Of a DNA stretch of 64,000 bases, positions 13,460 to 62,756 are shown in pieces. The DNA is from Gemmatimonadota bacterium (lineage in GTDB: Bacteria > Gemmatimonadota > Gemmatimonadetes > Palauibacterales > Palauibacteraceae). The stretch covers positions 2,391-66,390 of the forward strand of contig JBPCJZ010000181.1 in NCBI GenBank assembly GCA_051004775.1, given 5' to 3'. Below the pieces are notes generated by a model. That model saw only the letters and a list, made by a program, of their open reading frames with translations, made no database searches and was not told the DNA's origin. The position numbers and the translations under genes are program-made. Position 1 is the stretch's first letter, and each line of letters begins with the position of its first letter.

Positions 13460-13693
13460 TCAATCGGCGCCGCGTCCGCTGAATCCCACCAGGAGGCCGG
13501 CGGGAACGAGGACGGCGTAGCCAAGGAACAGGAGCAGCGGAGCCGCCACGACCGACCCCGCCGACAGCAGGACGTAGCCCACGATGACGGCGGCGAGGCC
13601 GCCGAGGAGCAGGGCCACGTTGAGCGCGCGGAGGCCGAACAGGCCGGTCCGCTCTACCGGGGCGGAGTCCCGCCGCGTTCGACTTGAAGTCAT
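13460..13693 (-). CDS. Small hydrophobic membrane protein (2 TM), hypothetical
   Basis: 77 aa with two predicted TM helices. No recognisable family. Confidence 0.4.
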   Translation of the reverse strand: MTSSRTRRDSAPVERTGLFGLRALNVALLLGGLAAVIVGYVLLSAGSVVAAPLLLFLGYAVLVPAGLLVGFSGRGAD

Positions 13694-13724
13694 CCTGATA
13701 TGCTAGGCCGCACGGCGAACAACG

Positions 13725-23087: not shown

Positions 23088-23531
23088 TTACCTCCTCGCC
23101 CGCTGAACTCGCTGCTCGATCCGCGTCGCGAACGTCACGCGGACCGCTCCTGCCTGCTTCAACTGCTCGGTGATCTCGTTGATCTGGTGGTACGCAACCT
23201 CGCGGTCGCCGCGAATGGCGACCACCAGGCTGCGATTCTCGGCGTAGAGCGGCCGGATCACGCCGGAGATGCTCTCATACGGCACGAGCTGGTCGTTGAT
23301 GAACACCCGTCCCTCCGGGTCCACCCAGACGTGCACGATGTTCTTCCGCTTCTCATCGATCTTCTCGGTCGCCTCGGCGTTGGCCCAGTCGATCTTCACG
23401 TCTTTCTCTTTCCGGAACACGGTAGAGACCATGAAGAAGATCAGCAGCAGGAACGCGATGTCGGCCATCGAGGACGAGGGGATCTCCGCGCTGGAATCCG
23501 ACTTCCGATGAAACCCTCCACGCTTGGCCAT
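23088..23531 (-). CDS. exbD: Biopolymer transport protein ExbD/TolR (copy 2)
   Basis: 147 aa, single TM (IAFLLLIFFMV) plus periplasmic domain. Confidence 0.85.
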   Translation of the reverse strand: MAKRGGFHRKSDSSAEIPSSSMADIAFLLLIFFMVSTVFRKEKDVKIDWANAEATEKIDEKRKNIVHVWVDPEGRVFINDQLVPYESISGVIRPLYAENRSLVVAIRGDREVAYHQINEITEQLKQAGAVRVTFATRIEQRVQRARR

Positions 23532-23532
23532 G

Positions 23533-23958
23533 CTACTCCTCGAGTATCTGGAGGGAGATCCGATCGGCGCCCGAGAGCTTCACCTGGTCGAGAACGTCGA
23601 TCATGTACCTGTAGGAAGCCTCGGGCGCCGTCTTGATCGCGGCGATTAGCTTGTCGTTGCCCGCCAGCTCCGCGCGCAGCAACGGTTCGATCTGGCTGGC
23701 CGCGACGGTTTGCTCTTGCTCGCTCTCTCCACGACGGACGACCACGCGACCGTCGGGCTGGATGAGAAAGAAGATGATGTTCTTGGCCGCGATCTCCACT
23801 TCGTCCGTGTCGGGGTCGGGCAGGACGATCGGCAGGCCCTTCTCTTCGTTGAACACGGTCGTGGTCAGGAAGAAGACGAGCAGCAGGAACGCGATGTCGG
23901 CCATCGACGCGGTCGGAATTTCGTCCGACACCCGCTCTTTTCGATTCAGAATCGCCAT
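23533..23958 (-). CDS. exbD: Biopolymer transport protein ExbD/TolR (copy 1)
   Basis: 141 aa, MADIAFLLLVFFL TM plus periplasmic domain. Tandem with the second exbD. Confidence 0.85.
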   Translation of the reverse strand: MAILNRKERVSDEIPTASMADIAFLLLVFFLTTTVFNEEKGLPIVLPDPDTDEVEIAAKNIIFFLIQPDGRVVVRRGESEQEQTVAASQIEPLLRAELAGNDKLIAAIKTAPEASYRYMIDVLDQVKLSGADRISLQILEE

Positions 23959-23971
23959 CGTCAGTTCCTCA

Positions 23972-24634
23972 CTACCTGCGGGTAGTCGTGGCTTGGCTCT
24001 CGTCCTGCGCGCGCCAGATCATGTCGAGCACCTGCTGTGTGCCTTTGTCCATGTCCGCGATCAGCGTGTCGATCCTCGTCACGAAGTAGTTGTAGGCGAC
24101 GTTCACCGGGATCGCGATCGTCAGGCCGGCCGCCGTGGTGATCAGGGCGATCTTGATGCCCGAGGCCACGAGGGCCGGTTCGACCTGCCCCGCCGCTTCG
24201 ATGGCGTCGAAGGCCGCGATCATACCGATCACGGTACCCAGAAAGCCGAGCATCGGAGCCACGTTCGCGATGGTCGCCAGAACGGTGAGACCCCGTTCGA
24301 GGAAGTCGAGTTCCAACGTGCCGGTCGTCTCGATGGCCTTGCTGATGTCCGCGCCGCGCTCGTTGGCGCGCAGGCGCTTCAGGCCGGAGAGCAGGATGGC
24401 GGCCACGGGGCCACGGGTCTCGTGCGCCCGTTCGATGGCCTTGTCGATCTCGCCGCCGACACCGAGCGCCTCGATGTCCGCGAGGAGTTCCTTCGAGTCC
24501 TTGTGGGCGACGTGGAGAGTCCACCCCTTCGCGATGATCACGCCGAGGGCGACCAGGGAGCAGAGGATCAGGGGATACATCATGAAGCCCCCGTCCACGA
24601 AGATCGTCAGCAGCTCGTAACTGGTGTCGTTCAC
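23972..24634 (-). CDS. exbB: MotA/TolQ/ExbB proton-channel protein
   Basis: 220 aa, three TM, conserved C-terminal TM pair (GLTIAIPVNVAYNYF). Confidence 0.85.
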   Translation of the reverse strand: MNDTSYELLTIFVDGGFMMYPLILCSLVALGVIIAKGWTLHVAHKDSKELLADIEALGVGGEIDKAIERAHETRGPVAAILLSGLKRLRANERGADISKAIETTGTLELDFLERGLTVLATIANVAPMLGFLGTVIGMIAAFDAIEAAGQVEPALVASGIKIALITTAAGLTIAIPVNVAYNYFVTRIDTLIADMDKGTQQVLDMIWRAQDESQATTTRR

Positions 24635-24736
24635 TCGTCAATGCTCCGTTCTTCGCGGAAATCGGGCCGCGGCCGGAACTTCTGCGGCGGAAAGTAGTTT
24701 ATTCGCGGCTCCGGGCGGCGTCAAACCTCGGGGGCC

Positions 24737-38338: not shown

Positions 38339-38974
38339 TCAAGGCACCGGGACGAGGACCACGTCGTCGCCGTCGAGCCGGATGGCCCCCACGTCGCGGT
38401 GCATGGGGGTGACGATTCTCCCGTTCGACGTCCGAATCCCTTCGGACGCGAGTCCCTGCACGACGAGCGGCAAAGCCATGGAGGGCAGCACGAGTTCACC
38501 TACCTGCAAGCTACGGACCTGGATCTCCAGTTCCCCTGCTCGCTCGACGGCGGGCACGAGCCCGACCAGCACACGGGAGGAATCGGCCATGAACGAGCGA
38601 ACCATGTCGGGCGTCTTGAACCCCTCCAGGTCGTCGGGGCGAATGCGCGCGGACAGGACGACGATCGAGTCCTGCACGTCGATCTGCGGATCCTCGACGC
38701 CCGCCGGCAGAGACGCGCCCGATCGGTACGTCAGGATACTCTGAAGTTCGGCTTCGCTGAGCCGGACCTCTTCCGTCAGACCCTCTCTCGCGATCCGGTC
38801 CAGCTTGCGCTCGGCCGACTGCGCCAGGCGCTCGCTCGGCTCTCGGTTGCCGCCGATCTCAAGACGGCCCATCCAGTCCGAAATCCGGTCGCGGGCCAGC
38901 CACGCGCCTCCCGCCAGGAGCAGAAGGAGCAGCAGGCAGCCGAGCCCGGAACGGCATCCCCTACGCGAAGCCAT
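38339..38974 (-). CDS. Hypothetical exported protein
   Basis: 211 aa, signal/anchor LGCLLLLLLLAGGAWLA. No recognisable domain. Confidence 0.45.
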   Translation of the reverse strand: MASRRGCRSGLGCLLLLLLLAGGAWLARDRISDWMGRLEIGGNREPSERLAQSAERKLDRIAREGLTEEVRLSEAELQSILTYRSGASLPAGVEDPQIDVQDSIVVLSARIRPDDLEGFKTPDMVRSFMADSSRVLVGLVPAVERAGELEIQVRSLQVGELVLPSMALPLVVQGLASEGIRTSNGRIVTPMHRDVGAIRLDGDDVVLVPVP

Positions 38975-39011
38975 GGCCCGTCTCGTCGTTCAGCATAGTC
39001 ATGAGCCGATG

Positions 39012-57023: not shown

Positions 57024-57881
57024 TCATGTCTCCCCGACGTCTCCAAGGCGCGCTTCCGCCCACGCCAAAAGATCAGCGGTCATCCCCGCGGCCACCGGGT
57101 CGTGATGAAGCGCATGGAACGCGCCATCGTACTCGAGCACGGTGGCCGACGGCAGGGCGGCCGCGAAGGCCCGCGCGGCGTCGAGGCTGACGATCCGATC
57201 CTCGCCGGCCAGCAGAACCAGCGTCGGTGTCTGCAGCTTCCCGGCGGCGGCGACCAGTCGTTCCCGTTCCTTCGTCAGGGCGTTCCAGTGACCCGCGCTG
57301 ATCCGCCGCTGGACCAGTTCGTCGGCCGCGAAGCGTTCCGCCTCGGCGGGGGTTCGAAACAGGTCGGAATCCCGGATTCCGGTCGGCAGCGTGAACGACG
57401 GCTTGAGGTGAGCGAGGGCAGTAGAGGCCGCCCGCTTCCAGGCCGGCACGCGCATCGCAGATTCTACGAAAGGCGCCACCAGGATCAACCCGTGCAACCG
57501 GGAAGCGAACACCCGCGTCTGCACCCAGCGCGCCGCGACGAGTCCGCCGAGCGAGTGTCCGAGAAGAAACATCGGAACGCCGGACCGTTCGCGCTCGGCA
57601 TGGGTGACGAGCGCGTCCACGGCGCCCAGGTGATCCGCGTCGAAGTCCCGGACGTGGCCGCGGCGGCCGGGCGATCTGCCGTGCCCATATAGGTCGACGC
57701 CCCGCGTCTCGAAGCCGGCCGTCCCCAGGGCGCCCGCAAACCCGGCGTAGCGCCCGGAGTGCTCCGAAAGTCCGTGTATCACGAGCATGATCGCGCGCGG
57801 GTCGCCGCCGGGCGACTCCCAGCGCCTCTCGAACAGGTCGGGATGAGCACGCTCGGGCGCCCCCGGCACCGCGCTCGGCAC
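57024..57881 (-). CDS. Alpha/beta-hydrolase (lysophospholipase/monoacylglycerol-lipase-like)
   Basis: HGLSEH...GHSLGG nucleophile elbow, C-terminal D and H. Confidence 0.75.
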   Translation of the reverse strand: MPSAVPGAPERAHPDLFERRWESPGGDPRAIMLVIHGLSEHSGRYAGFAGALGTAGFETRGVDLYGHGRSPGRRGHVRDFDADHLGAVDALVTHAERERSGVPMFLLGHSLGGLVAARWVQTRVFASRLHGLILVAPFVESAMRVPAWKRAASTALAHLKPSFTLPTGIRDSDLFRTPAEAERFAADELVQRRISAGHWNALTKERERLVAAAGKLQTPTLVLLAGEDRIVSLDAARAFAAALPSATVLEYDGAFHALHHDPVAAGMTADLLAWAEARLGDVGET

Positions 57882-57895
57882 TGAGGCCGGCGGCG

Positions 57896-58402
57896 TCAGT
57901 TTCCCTCCAGGCGGAGCAGCAAGTCGCGGAGCGCCGCGTCGACCGAAGCGGACCGGACCGCCCGTCGATCACCGGGCAGGCATCGGTCGGTCGCGGTCGT
58001 GCCCCCGGGCCCGGAGACCGCGATCCACACGGTTCCGACTGGCTTTGCGGGCGTCCCGCCCCCCGGTCCGGCTATACCGGTAACGGCGACCGACCAGTCG
58101 GTTCGCGCCCGTTCCCGCATTCCGTCGGCGAGGGCCGCCGCGACCGCGCCGGAAACGGCGCCGTGCGCCTCGATCAGCGTCTCGGCGACTCCAGCTTGTC
58201 GTATCTTGGCGTCATCGGCGTAGACGATCAGTCCTCCCCAGAAGACGTCGGACGCTCCGGCGACCGCGGTGAGTTCGCCGCCGAGCAGGCCGCCCGTGCA
58301 ACTCTCCGCGACCGATAGCGTCGCCGACCGCTCGCGGAGGCCTTGCACGACGCGCCGGGCGAGGCCAGCTGTTTCACACCCCGCGCCGTCTGTCGCGCTC
58401 AT
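57896..58402 (-). CDS. pncC: CinA C-terminal domain protein (PncC-like nicotinamide-nucleotide amidohydrolase)
   Basis: Start [18 protein letters not shown]... [13 protein letters not shown]...VTGIAGPGG. Only the C-terminal CinA domain is present. The track ORF is N-extended. Confidence 0.8.
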
Positions 58403-59031
58403 CCGGTCGGCTCGGCCGCCAATCCCCGGAAGGCCGCGACGTAGACGACGAACGAGTAGATCGTGAAGCCGAGCGCGACGGCCAGGCTGATGGTGGTGAA
58501 CCAGCCATGGAAGCCGTCCCACCAGGCGCCGAAGCGCTGGGCCCCGCCGTTGGTCAGCGCGTCGGTGCGGTAGGCCAGCCACAGGATCATCGATCCGATG
58601 AACACGTTCTGCGAGAACGCCTTGTACTTGCCGGACTGCATCGCCGGGACCACCGTTCCGCGACGCGCCGCCCGTGTCCGGAGCCACGTGACGACGATCT
58701 CCCGTCCGAAGAACACGACCAGGACCCACAGGCCGAGGGCGCCGAAGATCGGCATGCGGCCGAGATCCGGGTTCTCGCGCGCGATCAGGTAGAACGGGAC
58801 GACGGTCGCGACGAGCAGCAGCTTGTCGGCGATCGGATCGACCAGTTTGCCGAAGTTGGTGATCTCGCCGCGCCTGCGAGCGAGCGCGCCGTCCACGAGG
58901 TCCGACAGCGCCGCCACGAGGAAGACCAGCATGGCAAGGAGACGGCTCGAGGCATCCGGCTGCAGGATGAGGTACGTCGCAACGGGCGCGAGCACGATGC
59001 GGAACACCGTGATCGCGTTCGGTAGATTCAC
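58399..59031 (-). CDS. pgsA: CDP-diacylglycerol--glycerol-3-phosphate 3-phosphatidyltransferase
   Basis: GTG start [15 protein letters not shown]-alcohol phosphotransferase motif DGALAR...[10 protein letters not shown]. Confidence 0.85.
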
Positions 59032-59633
59032 GTCCCGGATCGTTCCCCTGCCGCCGCGGACAGGTTGCCGACTACGCGGGATGCGACCGCCGTCAGGGTC
59101 TCGATCACGCCCGATCCGCTGGTCGCGACCGTCTCGAACCATCCATCGGACTCGGCGGACGGCGACAGTTCGGCCGCCATCGCTTCCGCGGGCACGGCTT
59201 CGGGGTGATCCCGTCGGTTGAACTGCAGGATCACCGGGCGCAGCGTCTCTCCGGACGCGACCAGGTGCCGGCGGAGCGACTCCAGCGCGGCCCGATTGTC
59301 CGCCTGCCGGTCCGGGGAGCTATCCGCGACGAACACGAACCCGTCGGCGCCTCGCAGAAGGGCCTGGCTGCTCTCGCTGAGCGCGTCCCCGCCGGGAAGG
59401 CCGACGAGGTGGAGTCGAAGGGAAACTCCGTCGAGCGCACCGAGCTCGACGGTCAAGAAGTCCATGAACAGCGTGCGGTCCTGTTCGTCGGCCGGGGTGA
59501 GGAGAGGACCGCGAGTCGACGGATCCACCCGGTCGAACACCGCGCGCAGGGTTTCCGTCTTGCCGCTTCCCCGCGGGCCCCAGTAGACGACGCGTGTCGC
59601 GACCTCGCGTGTCTGCCGGCTCGATGAGCTCAC
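59028..59633 (-). CDS. mglA: MglA-like Ras-family small GTPase
   Basis: [15 protein letters not shown] (P-loop), [10 protein letters not shown] (MglA Arg-finger region), FVADSS, QFNRRD (NKxD-like), [17 protein letters not shown]. Full-length colinear with Myxococcus MglA. Confidence 0.75.
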
Positions 59634-59636
59634 GCT

Positions 59637-59981
59637 TCAGGCCCCTTCCGCATTCTCCGCCGCCAGCTCCCGCTCCATGGTCGCAAGGATGCCGGCCGCA
59701 CGCTTCCGCAGGAGCGGCCGCTCTTCCCAGGAGAGGTAGTCGCGCAGGAGGAGAACGTTGTCGACCGCCGGCTGACTCTTCAGGTAGCCGAGCGCGGCCA
59801 GGCGCCGAAGGGGCTGCGGGCTGAACAACTCGCGCTGGTGGCGCGCCATCTGGTCGCGGGCCAGCAGGACGCCGGCCAGCCCGAGGGCAGCCGCGCCGAT
59901 CAGCGCTCCGAGGCCTACCTTCAGCAGGCGCCCCATCAGTTCGTCCGAACTGTCCCGCACCAACACGAATTTTTCGGCCAT
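59637..59981 (-). CDS. Small single-TM protein, hypothetical (immediately upstream of mglA-like gene)
   Basis: 114 aa, TM LLKVGLGALIGAAALGLAGVLLA. Not a Roadblock/MglB fold by sequence. Confidence 0.45.
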   Translation of the reverse strand: MAEKFVLVRDSSDELMGRLLKVGLGALIGAAALGLAGVLLARDQMARHQRELFSPQPLRRLAALGYLKSQPAVDNVLLLRDYLSWEERPLLRKRAAGILATMERELAAENAEGA

Positions 59982-60569
59982 CTACATCTCCCTGCGCCCG
60001 GCGAACGCTTCCGCGATCGTGACGCCATCCGCAAATTCCAGGTCACCGCCGACCGGCAGGCCGCGGGCGAGTCTCGTGACCCGCAGATTCGGCAGTCCCG
60101 ACGACAGTCGATGAAGATAGGCGGCCGTGGCCTCACCTTCCACGCTGGGATTCGTAGCGATGATCAGTTCGCTCACGCCCCGCTCGAGGCGGCGCATCAA
60201 GCTCGACATGTTCAGCTCGTCGGGCCCGATCCCATCGAGCGGCGACAGATGTCCACCCAGCACGTGGTAGCGGCCCCGGAACCTGCCGGACGCCTCGATC
60301 GCCGCGATGTCGGAAGCCTCCTCGACGACGCAGATCTCCCCCGGGTCGCGCCGTCCGTTGCAACAGAGCTCGCACGGATCCTCGGAGCTGAGGTTGCCGC
60401 ATTCCCCGCAGGCCCGGACCTCGTCCACCACCCGGTCGATCGCGGCGGCGAGGCGACGGGCATCCGCCGGAGGCGCCTTGAGGAGATAGTACGTCAACCG
60501 CTGTGCCGTCTTCCTGCCCACGCCGGGCAGGCGACTGAACTCCTGCACGAGACCGTCGATGGCAGACAT
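59982..60569 (-). CDS. recR: Recombination protein RecR
   Basis: HhH (LPGVGRKTAQRL), C4 zinc finger (CGECGNLSSEDPCELC), Toprim. Confidence 0.93.
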   Translation of the reverse strand: MSAIDGLVQEFSRLPGVGRKTAQRLTYYLLKAPPADARRLAAAIDRVVDEVRACGECGNLSSEDPCELCCNGRRDPGEICVVEEASDIAAIEASGRFRGRYHVLGGHLSPLDGIGPDELNMSSLMRRLERGVSELIIATNPSVEGEATAAYLHRLSSGLPNLRVTRLARGLPVGGDLEFADGVTIAEAFAGRREM

Positions 60570-60583
60570 CGGCTACAACCGAT

Positions 60584-60916
60584 TCAGCCGCCGAGCAGGG
60601 GCCCGAGGCCGGGCATGCCCAGCCCGCCTGCCGCCTGCTTCATTTCGGCTTCCATGGCCTCGCGCGAGCGTTTCTGCGCCTGGGTGACCGCGGCGAGCAC
60701 CAGGTCTTCGAGCATCTCGAGTTCCGCGGCATCGACCGCCTCGGCGTCGATGCGCAGGCCGACCAGGGTGCCCTTGCCGTCGACCGTCGCCTCCACGAGC
60801 CCGCCGCCACTCGATGCGGCGTGCGTCTGCTGCTCGAGCTTCTCCTGCACTTCCGCGATGCGCGACTGCAACTGCGTGGAAAGCTGCATCAATTGCTGTA
60901 TATTCTTGAAATCCAC
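60584..60916 (-). CDS. ybaB: Nucleoid-associated protein YbaB/EbfC
   Basis: FKNIQQLMQLSTQLQSRIAEVQEKLEQ...GGGLVEATVDGKGTLVGLRID. The start is approximate. Confidence 0.85.
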   Translation of the reverse strand: MDFKNIQQLMQLSTQLQSRIAEVQEKLEQQTHAASSGGGLVEATVDGKGTLVGLRIDAEAVDAAELEMLEDLVLAAVTQAQKRSREAMEAEMKQAAGGLGMPGLGPLLGG

Positions 60917-60992
60917 TGAAACTCCTGCACCTCGTTGAAGGGTACCAGCAGGTCGGTCGCTGAGGACCTGCTGCACGCCGCGACGGCCCGAT

Positions 60993-62756
60993 TCAGTCCT
61001 TCAGTCGCAGGTCGAGTTCTTGTACAGCCGTGCGGAGGTTCGGGTCCGCTTCCATCATGCGGTCCAGCCGCTGCTTCTGCGCCGTCTCGGCAGTAAAGCG
61101 CTCGCCGCGGCCCGCAGCCTCGACCTCCAGGACCAGCGAGCGCGGATCGATATCCAGCCGGCGCGAGAACTCGCGGCGAAACGTACTGGAGCGGAGGGGA
61201 TCCTCGAGAAAATTCTTCACTTCATCCTCCAGGCCCGCTACGACGCCGACCCGGATCCTATCCCCCGACCGCGAGAGCTTCGCGCTCGTGAGGGCTATCG
61301 CTTTTCCACCGATTCCCTTGCCGCGAAGGGCCGCGATCGTCTCCATCCAGGCCCCCTTCAACGCCGTCGGGTCCGCCGACAACGGGGAACTCGCGTCGGA
61401 GCCATCGGTCGCGGCGGCGGTCGAGCGCGCCTCGGGCTCGGCCGGCGCCTCGGGCTGGTCCATCGCTACGGGTTCGGCCGTCGCCTCGGGCCGGGCAGCC
61501 TCGTCGGTGTCGCGGGCGTCGTCGAGCGGCGGCGGCGCCGGGGTGGAGCGAGGCGAAGCGGTCGGGGCGGCCGGCCGCACTGGACGCACGGGCGCGCGCG
61601 GCGGAGTTCCCGTTTCGACGGCCTCCACGAGATCGGCGAACTCGACGTAGGACAGCATGCTGGTCAGCCGCAGCAGGAGCGCCTCGAGTTGGATGCGCGG
61701 CTGAGTGCTGCGGCGCAGACGGCCGGAGGACTCGAACTCCACGGTGGCCATGAGGTAGCGGAGCAGATCTTCCTCGCTGAACCGCGCGGCTTCCTCCGCG
61801 AACGCCGCCCGCGTGGCCGCGGGCAGATCGGCGCCGCCGGACTCGGGATCGAGCCGCAGGCCCAGCAAGACCCGCCAGGCTTCGCCGAGCCCCCGGAGGA
61901 ACTCGCCGAGGTCGTAGCCCTCGTCGAGCAGTTGCTGGACGAATGGGAACACCGAGGCCCGGTCCGCGTCGGCGACCGCCCGCACGATCTCGAGATACTT
62001 TTCCTCGGCGACCAGCCCGAGCATGCGGCGAACGTCTTTGACGGCGACGGAGTCGCCGGAGAAGGACAGGACCTGGTCGAGGAGAGACAGCGCGTCTCGG
62101 ACGCCGCCCTCGGCGCGCCGCGCGATCGGGAGAAGCGCGCCCGCCTCCGCCTCGACGCCTTCCCGCTCCAGCACCTCCTCGAGGCGACCGACGAGGTCGG
62201 ACACGGACACCCGGCGGAAGTCGAATCGCTGGCACCGGGAGAGGACGGGCGCCGCCGTCTGCCGGATCTTCTCGGGCTCGGTGGTGGCGAACACGAAGAT
62301 CACGCGCGGGGGCGGCTCCTCGAGTGTCTTGAGCAGGGCGTTCCACGCCTCCCGGGTGAGCATGTGCGCTTCATCGACGATGTAGACCTTGTAGCGAGAC
62401 TCGTCGGAGGGAGCGTACATCGCGCGTTCGCGCAGGCCGCGGGCGTCGTCGACGCCGCGATTGCTGGCCGCGTCGATCTCGACGACGTCGAGCGCGGTCC
62501 TCCCCGACCAGATGCTCTCGCACGACTCGCAGACGCCGCACGGCTCTCCGGCTTCCCGGTTCGGGCAATTGAGCGCCATGGCGAGGACGCGGGCGGCCGT
62601 GGTCTTGCCGATTCCGCGTGACCCGGCGAACAGGTAGGCGTGGCCGACCCGGCCGGATTCGACGGCGCTGCGAAGCGTCGAAGCGACGTGATCCTGGCCG
62701 ACGAGCTCCGCGAACCTGCGGGGGCGATGGCTGCGTGCGAGGGCGGTCCGATACAT
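60993..62756 (-). CDS. dnaX: DNA polymerase III subunit gamma/tau
   Basis: HAYLFAGSRGIGKTTAARVLA..., zinc module CPNREAGEPCGVCESC, SRC/sensor motifs. Confidence 0.92.
   Translation of the reverse strand: MYRTALARSHRPRRFAELVGQDHVASTLRSAVESGRVGHAYLFAGSRGIGKTTAARVLAMALNCPNREAGEPCGVCESCESIWSGRTALDVVEIDAASNRGVDDARGLRERAMYAPSDESRYKVYIVDEAHMLTREAWNALLKTLEEPPPRVIFVFATTEPEKIRQTAAPVLSRCQRFDFRRVSVSDLVGRLEEVLEREGVEAEAGALLPIARRAEGGVRDALSLLDQVLSFSGDSVAVKDVRRMLGLVAEEKYLEIVRAVADADRASVFPFVQQLLDEGYDLGEFLRGLGEAWRVLLGLRLDPESGGADLPAATRAAFAEEAARFSEEDLLRYLMATVEFESSGRLRRSTQPRIQLEALLLRLTSMLSYVEFADLVEAVETGTPPRAPVRPVRPAAPTASPRSTPAPPPLDDARDTDEAARPEATAEPVAMDQPEAPAEPEARSTAAATDGSDASSPLSADPTALKGAWMETIAALRGKGIGGKAIALTSAKLSRSGDRIRVGVVAGLEDEVKNFLEDPLRSSTFRREFSRRLDIDPRSLVLEVEAAGRGERFTAETAQKQRLDRMMEADPNLRTAVQELDLRLKD

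Follow-up and report, generated by a model that had tools for sequence, protein, structure and literature searches.

MglA is a cell-polarity switch from a prokaryotic family of small GTPases. Its GTPase-activating protein (GAP), MglB, moves Arg53 and Thr54 into place in the MglA active site, and Myxococcus xanthus MglA carrying the Q82L substitution is unable to hydrolyse GTP (PMC6876712). In a survey from 2014, the Gln of the G3 motif was retained in all five MglA groups and an MglB was coupled within four genes for 390 of 449 MglAs, with some orphans; G. aurantiaca was represented by an MglB-coupled MglA of 225 amino acids (aa), and mglB-less types such as those described below were unsampled then (PMC4316618). 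In deltaproteobacteria the genes are found in a dnaX-DUF149-recR-mglB-mglA arrangement, of which Bdellovibrio bacteriovorus carries the mglB-less version (Milner et al. 2014, PMC3983030). Its MglA has Ser at position 21 and is predicted to be permanently GTP-bound (PMC3983030). Here I describe a 201-aa GTPase encoded without MglB in a 64,000-nucleotide stretch of Gemmatimonadota DNA (contig JBPCJZ010000181.1; hereafter the window), together with the 114-aa single-pass membrane protein that is encoded directly upstream. With a probability of roughly 60%, and by analogy with the orphan Bdellovibrio MglA(S21), the GTPase is read as a hydrolysis-impaired, constitutively nucleotide-bound MglA derivative or adaptor.

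The GTPase gene (59028..59633, minus strand) has a GTG start, and its product is deposited as MGI9039307.1 ('MAG: GTP-binding protein [Gemmatimonadota bacterium]', MAG standing for metagenome-assembled genome) without a more specific name. The original prediction, made from the letters of the window, called it an MglA-like Ras GTPase, and this identification holds. A phmmer search of the PDB placed T. thermophilus MglA on top (3t12, E=2.2e-38) and found M. xanthus MglA (5ymx) at E=1.4e-35, the next family being Arf at only E~1e-4, while the alignment with MglA runs without gaps from residue 3 to ~130 through the P-loop, switch I, and switch II. An AlphaFold2 (AF2) model (mean predicted local distance difference test, pLDDT, 87.8; predicted template-modelling score, pTM, 0.86) retrieved MglA structures in all 14 of its best Foldseek matches to the PDB, led by 6izw_A (M. 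xanthus MglA-GTPgammaS/MglB; TM-score 0.85/0.89, root-mean-square deviation (rmsd) 1.8 Å). No Pfam or NCBIfam family scored above threshold. Superposition on MglA in complex with a GTP analogue or MglB gave an rmsd of 1.6-1.8 Å, compared with 2.6 Å for unbound MglA-GTPgammaS (6h17) and a poorer fit of 2.6-3.2 Å for GDP-bound MglA, which suggests an 'on' strand register for the model, with AF2 bias as a possible contributor.

The protein shares with Group 1 MglA (M. xanthus and T. thermophilus; Wuichet & Sogaard-Andersen 2014) its fold (TM-score 0.85-0.89, 37-39% identity), an intrinsic Arg finger beside the G2 Thr (R53 in DRTLF, followed by T54), the FVADS motif, and a place in the operon after recR, which mglA also has in deltaproteobacteria and Gemmatimonadales. 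The P-loop reads GPRGSGKT and conforms to GxxxxGK[ST]; this motif, the Arg finger, FVADS, and NRRD are all present as previously listed. The differences from Group 1 are a G3 motif of GLPG[G/D/A] instead of TVPGQ, and hence no catalytic Gln, Arg in place of Gly21, Arg in place of the G4 Lys (NRRD, outside the [NT]KxD pattern of the family), Trp in place of Tyr18, an extended C-terminal helix with a conserved tail, and the absence of MglB from the locus. Outside the clade formed by the window protein and its orthologs, many of the nearest relatives (P0062-P0099) have ~35-42% identity and 310-352 aa, consisting of a canonical MglA domain (GPGLSGKT, TVPGQV) and an extension of ~140-150 aa.

The change in G3 was followed across the clade. 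Aligning LVGLPGGDA of the window protein with LYTVPGQVF of MglA places Gly82 under the catalytic Gln82 in the gap-free region, which bears out the proposed replacement of Gln by Gly. The clade comprises ~60 orthologs from Gemmatimonadota metagenomes with 59-86% identity, nearly all of 198-204 aa, which show the same features, so that these are not due to chance. Among the 53 full-length members used for all residue counts, position 82 is D in 32, G in 12, A in seven, and S and E in one each, and is never Q, compared with Q in 54 of 59 more distant homologs. A second substitution had escaped the original prediction: position 21, the equivalent of Ras Gly12 and a Gly in M. xanthus MglA, is Arg in the window protein and R36, S12, Q2, G2, and K1 in the clade. 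The Arg finger at position 53 varies between R (41 members) and H (12), and 50/53 have Arg instead of the G4 Lys. Invariant in all 53 are W18, K25, T26, T54, G81, N139, and D142, and the extended C-terminal helix carries a conserved clade-specific tail, LSAAAEERSG[AT]. The loss of Gln is thus real, clade-wide, and selected, and at the level of sequence the combination of invariant binding residues with variable catalytic residues is a signature of selection for nucleotide binding without efficient hydrolysis.

The operon was compared across 80 GTDB species loci, the nearest to the window among 273 species matches. The gene for the membrane protein directly follows recR in all 80, and the GTPase gene comes immediately downstream of it in 38; the 114-aa gene is therefore kept beside the GTPase in 38 of 38 GTPase-bearing species loci. 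The other 42, complete Palauibacter chromosomes included, have no counterpart of the GTPase, and pgsA directly follows the membrane protein gene. Locus L102 likewise reads recR-membrane protein (143 aa)-pgsA, with neither mglB nor the GTPase. Three Gemmatimonadales loci (L096, L098, and L100, with L098 on a 4.59-Mb contig) carry the fuller arrangement dnaX-ybaB-recR-membrane protein (~90 aa)-mglB (Robl_LC7, 163-166 aa)-mglA (224 aa)-pgsA-cinA-grpE-dnaJ, and their MglA is fully canonical (G21 and R53; GPGLGGKT, ERTLF, TVPGQ, and NKRD). The MglB-coupled 224-aa MglA (L098:5786-6460, L100:5791-6465) has an insertion of ~30 residues between G4 and G5 (…NPGWPVEDAARQRPLVDPNRPGEMLVQEMDGMWIERAPY…), which neither the MglA of M. 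xanthus and T. thermophilus nor the mglB-less forms of 194-201 aa possess.

A hidden Markov model (HMM) of MglB found no match in six-frame open reading frames (ORFs) of at least 60 aa in the window or in loci L001-L093, and a Pfam search of the small window ORFs returned no Robl_LC7 match. No Roadblock gene is thus adjacent to the GTPase or present in the 64 kb, as had been noted, and a coupled MglB within four genes is lacking at this locus. The proposal that the membrane protein stands there instead of MglB is not supported: a canonical mglB is adjacent in the three Gemmatimonadales relatives, an outcome that the original prediction had itself listed as counting against it. The membrane protein gene sits upstream of mglB-mglA in the same operon there, and it also persists without any GTPase in the 42 species loci and in L102. 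The window locus is therefore this operon minus mglB, and the membrane protein gene is its pre-existing third member. By position, the GTPase is the ortholog of mglA in a Gemmatimonadota-wide dnaX-ybaB-recR-X-(mglB)-(mglA)-pgsA-cinA operon, in which X denotes the membrane protein. Nor is the genomic context new, given the dnaX-DUF149-recR-mglB-mglA synteny of deltaproteobacteria (PMC3983030) and the recR-mglB-mglA linkage in L094, a non-Gemmatimonadota metagenomic locus with no extra small transmembrane ORF between recR and mglB. A functional reading of the DNA-repair and phospholipid neighbours was rejected as weak: housekeeping blocks such as dnaX-ybaB-recR and pgsA-cinA occur widely, and recR and mglBA are linked elsewhere too. 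In another locus (L095:1239-8353), three consecutive Roadblock genes, one of them fused to TPR, precede an MglA with Ala21 and NKQD. Two PATAN(PatA_N)-TPR proteins, a CheW-like gene, and a DnaA/IstB-like AAA protein flank these genes in what is an elaborate MglA module.

Membrane protein X (59637..59981, minus strand; MGI9039308.1, a hypothetical protein on the same 89.9-kb contig as MGI9039307.1) has a single hydrophobic segment at residues ~22-41. Its N-terminus bears a strand-like motif, EKFVLVR, and its AF2 model (pLDDT 82.6) is all-helical, with helices at residues 11-52 (transmembrane helix and stalk), 57-69, 73-85, and 89-113 and a nearly invariant three-helix C-terminal domain (residues 41-106). 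The transmembrane helix is rich in small-xxx-small (G/A) patterns. Searches of Pfam (E<=0.1) and NCBIfam gave no match, the family profile had zero matches among PDB sequences, and Foldseek of the model against the PDB gave nothing significant among the 50 best matches, none reaching E<0.9. The family has 351 homologs and, at 50% identity, 166 representatives; it exceeds the GTPase in both conservation and distribution, and all homologs bearing organism names are Gemmatimonadota; a genome scan found the gene in 273 GTDB species, nearly all labelled as this phylum. The 90-aa Gemmatimonadales proteins are homologous to the 114-aa protein (profile E~1e-25 over positions 27-106). Species with and without MglA/MglB share, almost without variation, the juxtamembrane motif ARDQMxRHxxxLFSxxPLRRLAALGYL…VDNVLLLRDYLAWEERPLLRKRA, which points to a conserved partner or function that is independent of the GTPase. 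The 114-aa protein is thus a separate phylum-specific single-pass membrane protein, encoded directly after recR with or without mglB and mglA.

A Roadblock identity for X was rejected: there was no match to PF03259, the all-helical model differs from the alpha/beta Roadblock fold, and hhalign against a profile of five MglB proteins returned a probability of 0.1%, in agreement with the earlier remark that the protein has no Roadblock/MglB signature. It resembles MglB/Roadblock-LC7 (PF03259) only in its position between recR and mglA, and differs in being membrane-anchored, all-helical, and able to coexist with a true MglB in Gemmatimonadales. RomX, a soluble three-helix bundle that binds MglA-GTP and works with RomR (PDB 8ZNA, bioRxiv 10.1101/2024.02.20.581209), is similarly small, helical, and found in an MglA context, and the soluble part of X is also predicted to form a three-helix unit. 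Unlike RomX, X is membrane-anchored, and its profile matched no PDB chain; 8ZNA was not among the 50 best Foldseek matches, a comparison limited by its unconfirmed presence in the PDB copies and by the difficulty of comparing small helical domains.

These properties bear on the model of the original prediction, in which X replaces MglB as cognate partner of the GTPase, as a tether or a GAP, in a new two-gene polarity module. The strict adjacency of both genes favours such a partnership, as does the N-terminal pattern [DE][KR]-hhhh-[RK] of X, which occurs in 34/37 loci with a constrained GTPase, 0/4 with a near-neutral one, and 1/43 without a GTPase; the 90-aa form that is coupled to MglB has no such N-terminal extension. 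This correlation is phylogenetically confounded, though, with few independent transitions, both flanks of the transmembrane segment are basic in a positive-inside analysis, and the predicted topology is ambiguous as to which end of X could reach a cytoplasmic GTPase. Taken with the coexistence of X and mglB, the persistence of X without the GTPase, and the lack of Roadblock similarity, a replacement of MglB by X appears quite improbable. A somewhat less remote but still speculative and rather unlikely scenario is that X became the membrane receptor of a locked MglA after mglB was lost, with docking through the newly acquired N-terminal strand motif of X, M-x-[DE]-[KR]-V-I-V-V-R, and perhaps the new GTPase tail LSAAAEERSG. 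The pair would then amount to a minimal landmark module at the membrane that has no GAP and is translated together with recR and pgsA.

Placing the GTPases of the species loci side by side reveals a graded series. At the Gln position the 38 proteins have Q in 18, D in nine, E in four, G in three, A in two, and R and T in one each, and Gly21 is found in none of these mglB-less-lineage GTPases (0/38), where the residue is Ala if the G3 motif reads TVPGQ and Arg, Glu, or Ser in others. On a neighbour-joining (NJ) tree of recR plus the membrane protein gene, lineages with a non-Q state are found at no fewer than five separate points beside TVPGQ lineages, namely the window clade (GLPG[GDA]), a SAPGD/TAPGE group that has also lost the Arg finger, TVSGR, TVPGE, and a TAPAG/ALPRD/AIAAT group adjoining lineages without the GTPase gene. 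The pairwise ratio of nonsynonymous to synonymous substitution rates (dN/dS) of the GTPase climbs along the series, from 0.10 in canonical-Q proteins to 0.17 in the window clade, 0.29 in the clade lacking both Arg and Gln, and 0.61 in the TAPAG group. For comparison, dN/dS in the window clade is 0.08 for recR and 0.10 for the membrane protein gene, and recR stays at 0.08-0.16 across all groups.

A decaying relic, functionless and heading for loss, would account for the repeated loss of the gene in related lineages, for the dN/dS of 0.61 in one degenerate group, and for the relaxed constraint relative to canonical MglA (0.17 vs 0.10). For the window clade I consider this highly improbable: its ~60 orthologs are intact and of nearly uniform length, a dN/dS of 0.17 is far below 1, the nucleotide-binding residues and Trp18 are invariant, and even the newly acquired C-terminal tail is conserved.

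The favoured sequence of events, then, would begin with the deletion of mglB in the window lineage, while Gemmatimonadales kept mglB and a canonical MglA. This direction, with the mglB-bearing operon first, is inferred from the occurrence of recR-mglBA outside the phylum. With the GAP gone, the residues for hydrolysis would become dispensable, two of which (Arg53 and Gln82) are positioned by MglB, and Gly21, the Arg53 finger, and Gln82 appear to have been lost repeatedly and independently, with all nucleotide- and Mg-binding residues kept. Lineages may subsequently have fixed a binder with poor hydrolysis or, in many cases, lost the whole gene; the window protein (R21, G82, NRRD) would represent a clade that halted midway, at a stage still under selection. 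Most likely it binds guanine nucleotide and hydrolyses GTP very slowly, and it would act as a constitutively 'on' MglA-type adaptor controlled by its abundance or localisation instead of a GAP cycle.

Several observations weigh against a hydrolysis-impaired, locked protein. The locked state is derived by analogy with Ras G12/Q61 and MglA G21V/Q82L. Arg53 is retained in the window GTPase, and an acidic residue, D83 in the window protein, is found at position 82 or 83 in 50/53 clade members, where it could serve as an alternative catalytic base. The search for mglB covered 64 kb of the window genome and ~4-6 kb on either side of the orthologous loci, and a copy may lie elsewhere in that genome; the species comparison, in turn, is limited to the nearest 80 loci. 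The A21 MglA of L095 is coupled to three Roadblock genes, so that a change at position 21 alone does not imply the loss of MglB or independence from a GAP. Finally, an NJ distance tree of MglA sequences is unresolved, with long-branch distortion, and does not recover a sister relationship between the mglB-less proteins and the MglA of Gemmatimonadales; the orthology of the window GTPase and mglA therefore rests on synteny.

Some of these points feed a different explanation, in which the GTPase still cycles with rewired catalysis: the acid at 82/83 would act as general base, Arg53 (41/53) and/or the P-loop Arg21 (36/53) would stabilise the transition state, and some GAP, possibly X, would assist. 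GBP1 and atlastin have catalytic arginines in the P-loop, and GTPases without the Gln, Rap for example, rely on residues that are provided in trans. The clear purifying selection on the GTPase (dN/dS 0.17) and the tight translational coupling of its gene to that of X fit this scheme as well. The clade shows variation at each of positions 21, 53, and 82, however, where catalytic residues would be expected to stay constant, and in sister lineages the loss of Arg53 comes with that of Gln and is followed by that of the gene. The soluble domain of X is equally invariant in species without the GTPase, and is thus not specialised as a GAP. Rewired catalysis consequently seems unlikely, and Arg21 in particular is an unlikely arginine finger in cis given the R/S/Q/G/K variation at this position.

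The closest parallel to the favoured, nucleotide-locked state remains Bdellovibrio, where mglB was likewise lost from a dnaX-recR-linked mglA locus and the gene was retained under selection (PMC3983030). Both systems combine the loss of mglB at a recR-linked locus with a substitution at the Ras-Gly12 position (S21 there, R21 here), for which permanent GTP binding is predicted. They differ in that Bdellovibrio MglA keeps Gln82 and NKxD; the window clade has lost Gln82 as well, belongs as one stage to a longer series with gene loss at its end, and has no known RomR or TPR partner. Among eukaryotic proteins, the atypical, constitutively GTP-bound small GTPases and pseudoGTPases (Rnd/RhoE, RhoH) carry combined substitutions at the Gly12 and Gln61 positions with intact nucleotide-binding motifs. 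By analogy, regulation by expression or localisation, not by a GAP and exchange-factor (GEF) cycle, might be expected for the window GTPase, which is of independent origin within the prokaryotic MglA family.

The surrounding genes, assigned with Pfam and NCBIfam, form a tightly packed minus-strand string of dnaX, ybaB, recR, the 114-aa ORF, the GTPase, pgsA, and cinA, followed by an alpha/beta hydrolase, grpE, and dnaJ. dnaX (60993..62756) heads the conserved dnaX-ybaB-recR block and is followed by ybaB/ebfC (formerly DUF149; 60584..60976), whose real start is possibly 3' of the first GTG. recR (59982..60569) ends in a TAG that abuts the ATG of the membrane protein gene (0 nt), three nucleotides separate the latter from the GTPase (TGA-agc-GTG), the GTPase stop overlaps the GTG start of pgsA (CDP-alcohol phosphatidyltransferase, 58399..59031) by four nucleotides (GTGA), and the pgsA stop overlaps the ATG of cinA (57896..58402) by another four (ATGA), all read directly from the sequence. 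This cinA encodes the C-terminal (PncC-like) domain only, and the hydrolase (57024..57881) lies between it and grpE. Such a short cinA (~157-171 aa) with a hydrolase before grpE was seen in the GTPase-bearing mglB-less loci, a full-length cinA (MoCF_biosynth+CinA, 411-421 aa) without the hydrolase in L008 and the Gemmatimonadales loci L098 and L100, and a short cinA of 185 aa without the hydrolase in the GTPase-less L102.

Elsewhere in the window (23091-24637, minus strand), Pfam identifies a gene of the ExbB/TolQ-MotA family with two ExbD/TolR genes behind it. Myxobacterial gliding motors are TolQR homologs, but nothing was found that connects this cluster to the GTPase. Two minus-strand ORFs, 38342-38989 (216 aa) and 13463-13702 (80 aa), have a coding-like GC content at third codon positions (GC3) and no Pfam match at E<=0.01.

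The locus reveals no new type of GTPase regulator, and both an orphan, predicted-locked MglA and the linkage to recR were known already. What it adds is a Gln-less, selected clade within an evolutionary series: in one phylum and at one fixed operon position, four states are found, from a GAP with an intact switch, through loss of the GAP and erosion of the catalytic residues with binding kept, to loss of the gene. The series illustrates how a small-GTPase switch can turn into a pseudo-switch once its GAP disappears, and at least one Gln-less clade has been kept by selection, which extends the Bdellovibrio precedent. The locus also brings to light a constant member of the recR-(mglBA)-pgsA operon, a membrane protein that is specific to Gemmatimonadota, strongly conserved, and had no name before; it offers a concrete candidate for experimental work on MglA and on membrane biology in a phylum where genetics is almost absent. 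If it does act as a receptor for the GTPase, envelope and phospholipid synthesis or nucleoid processes could be tied to a fixed position in the cell.

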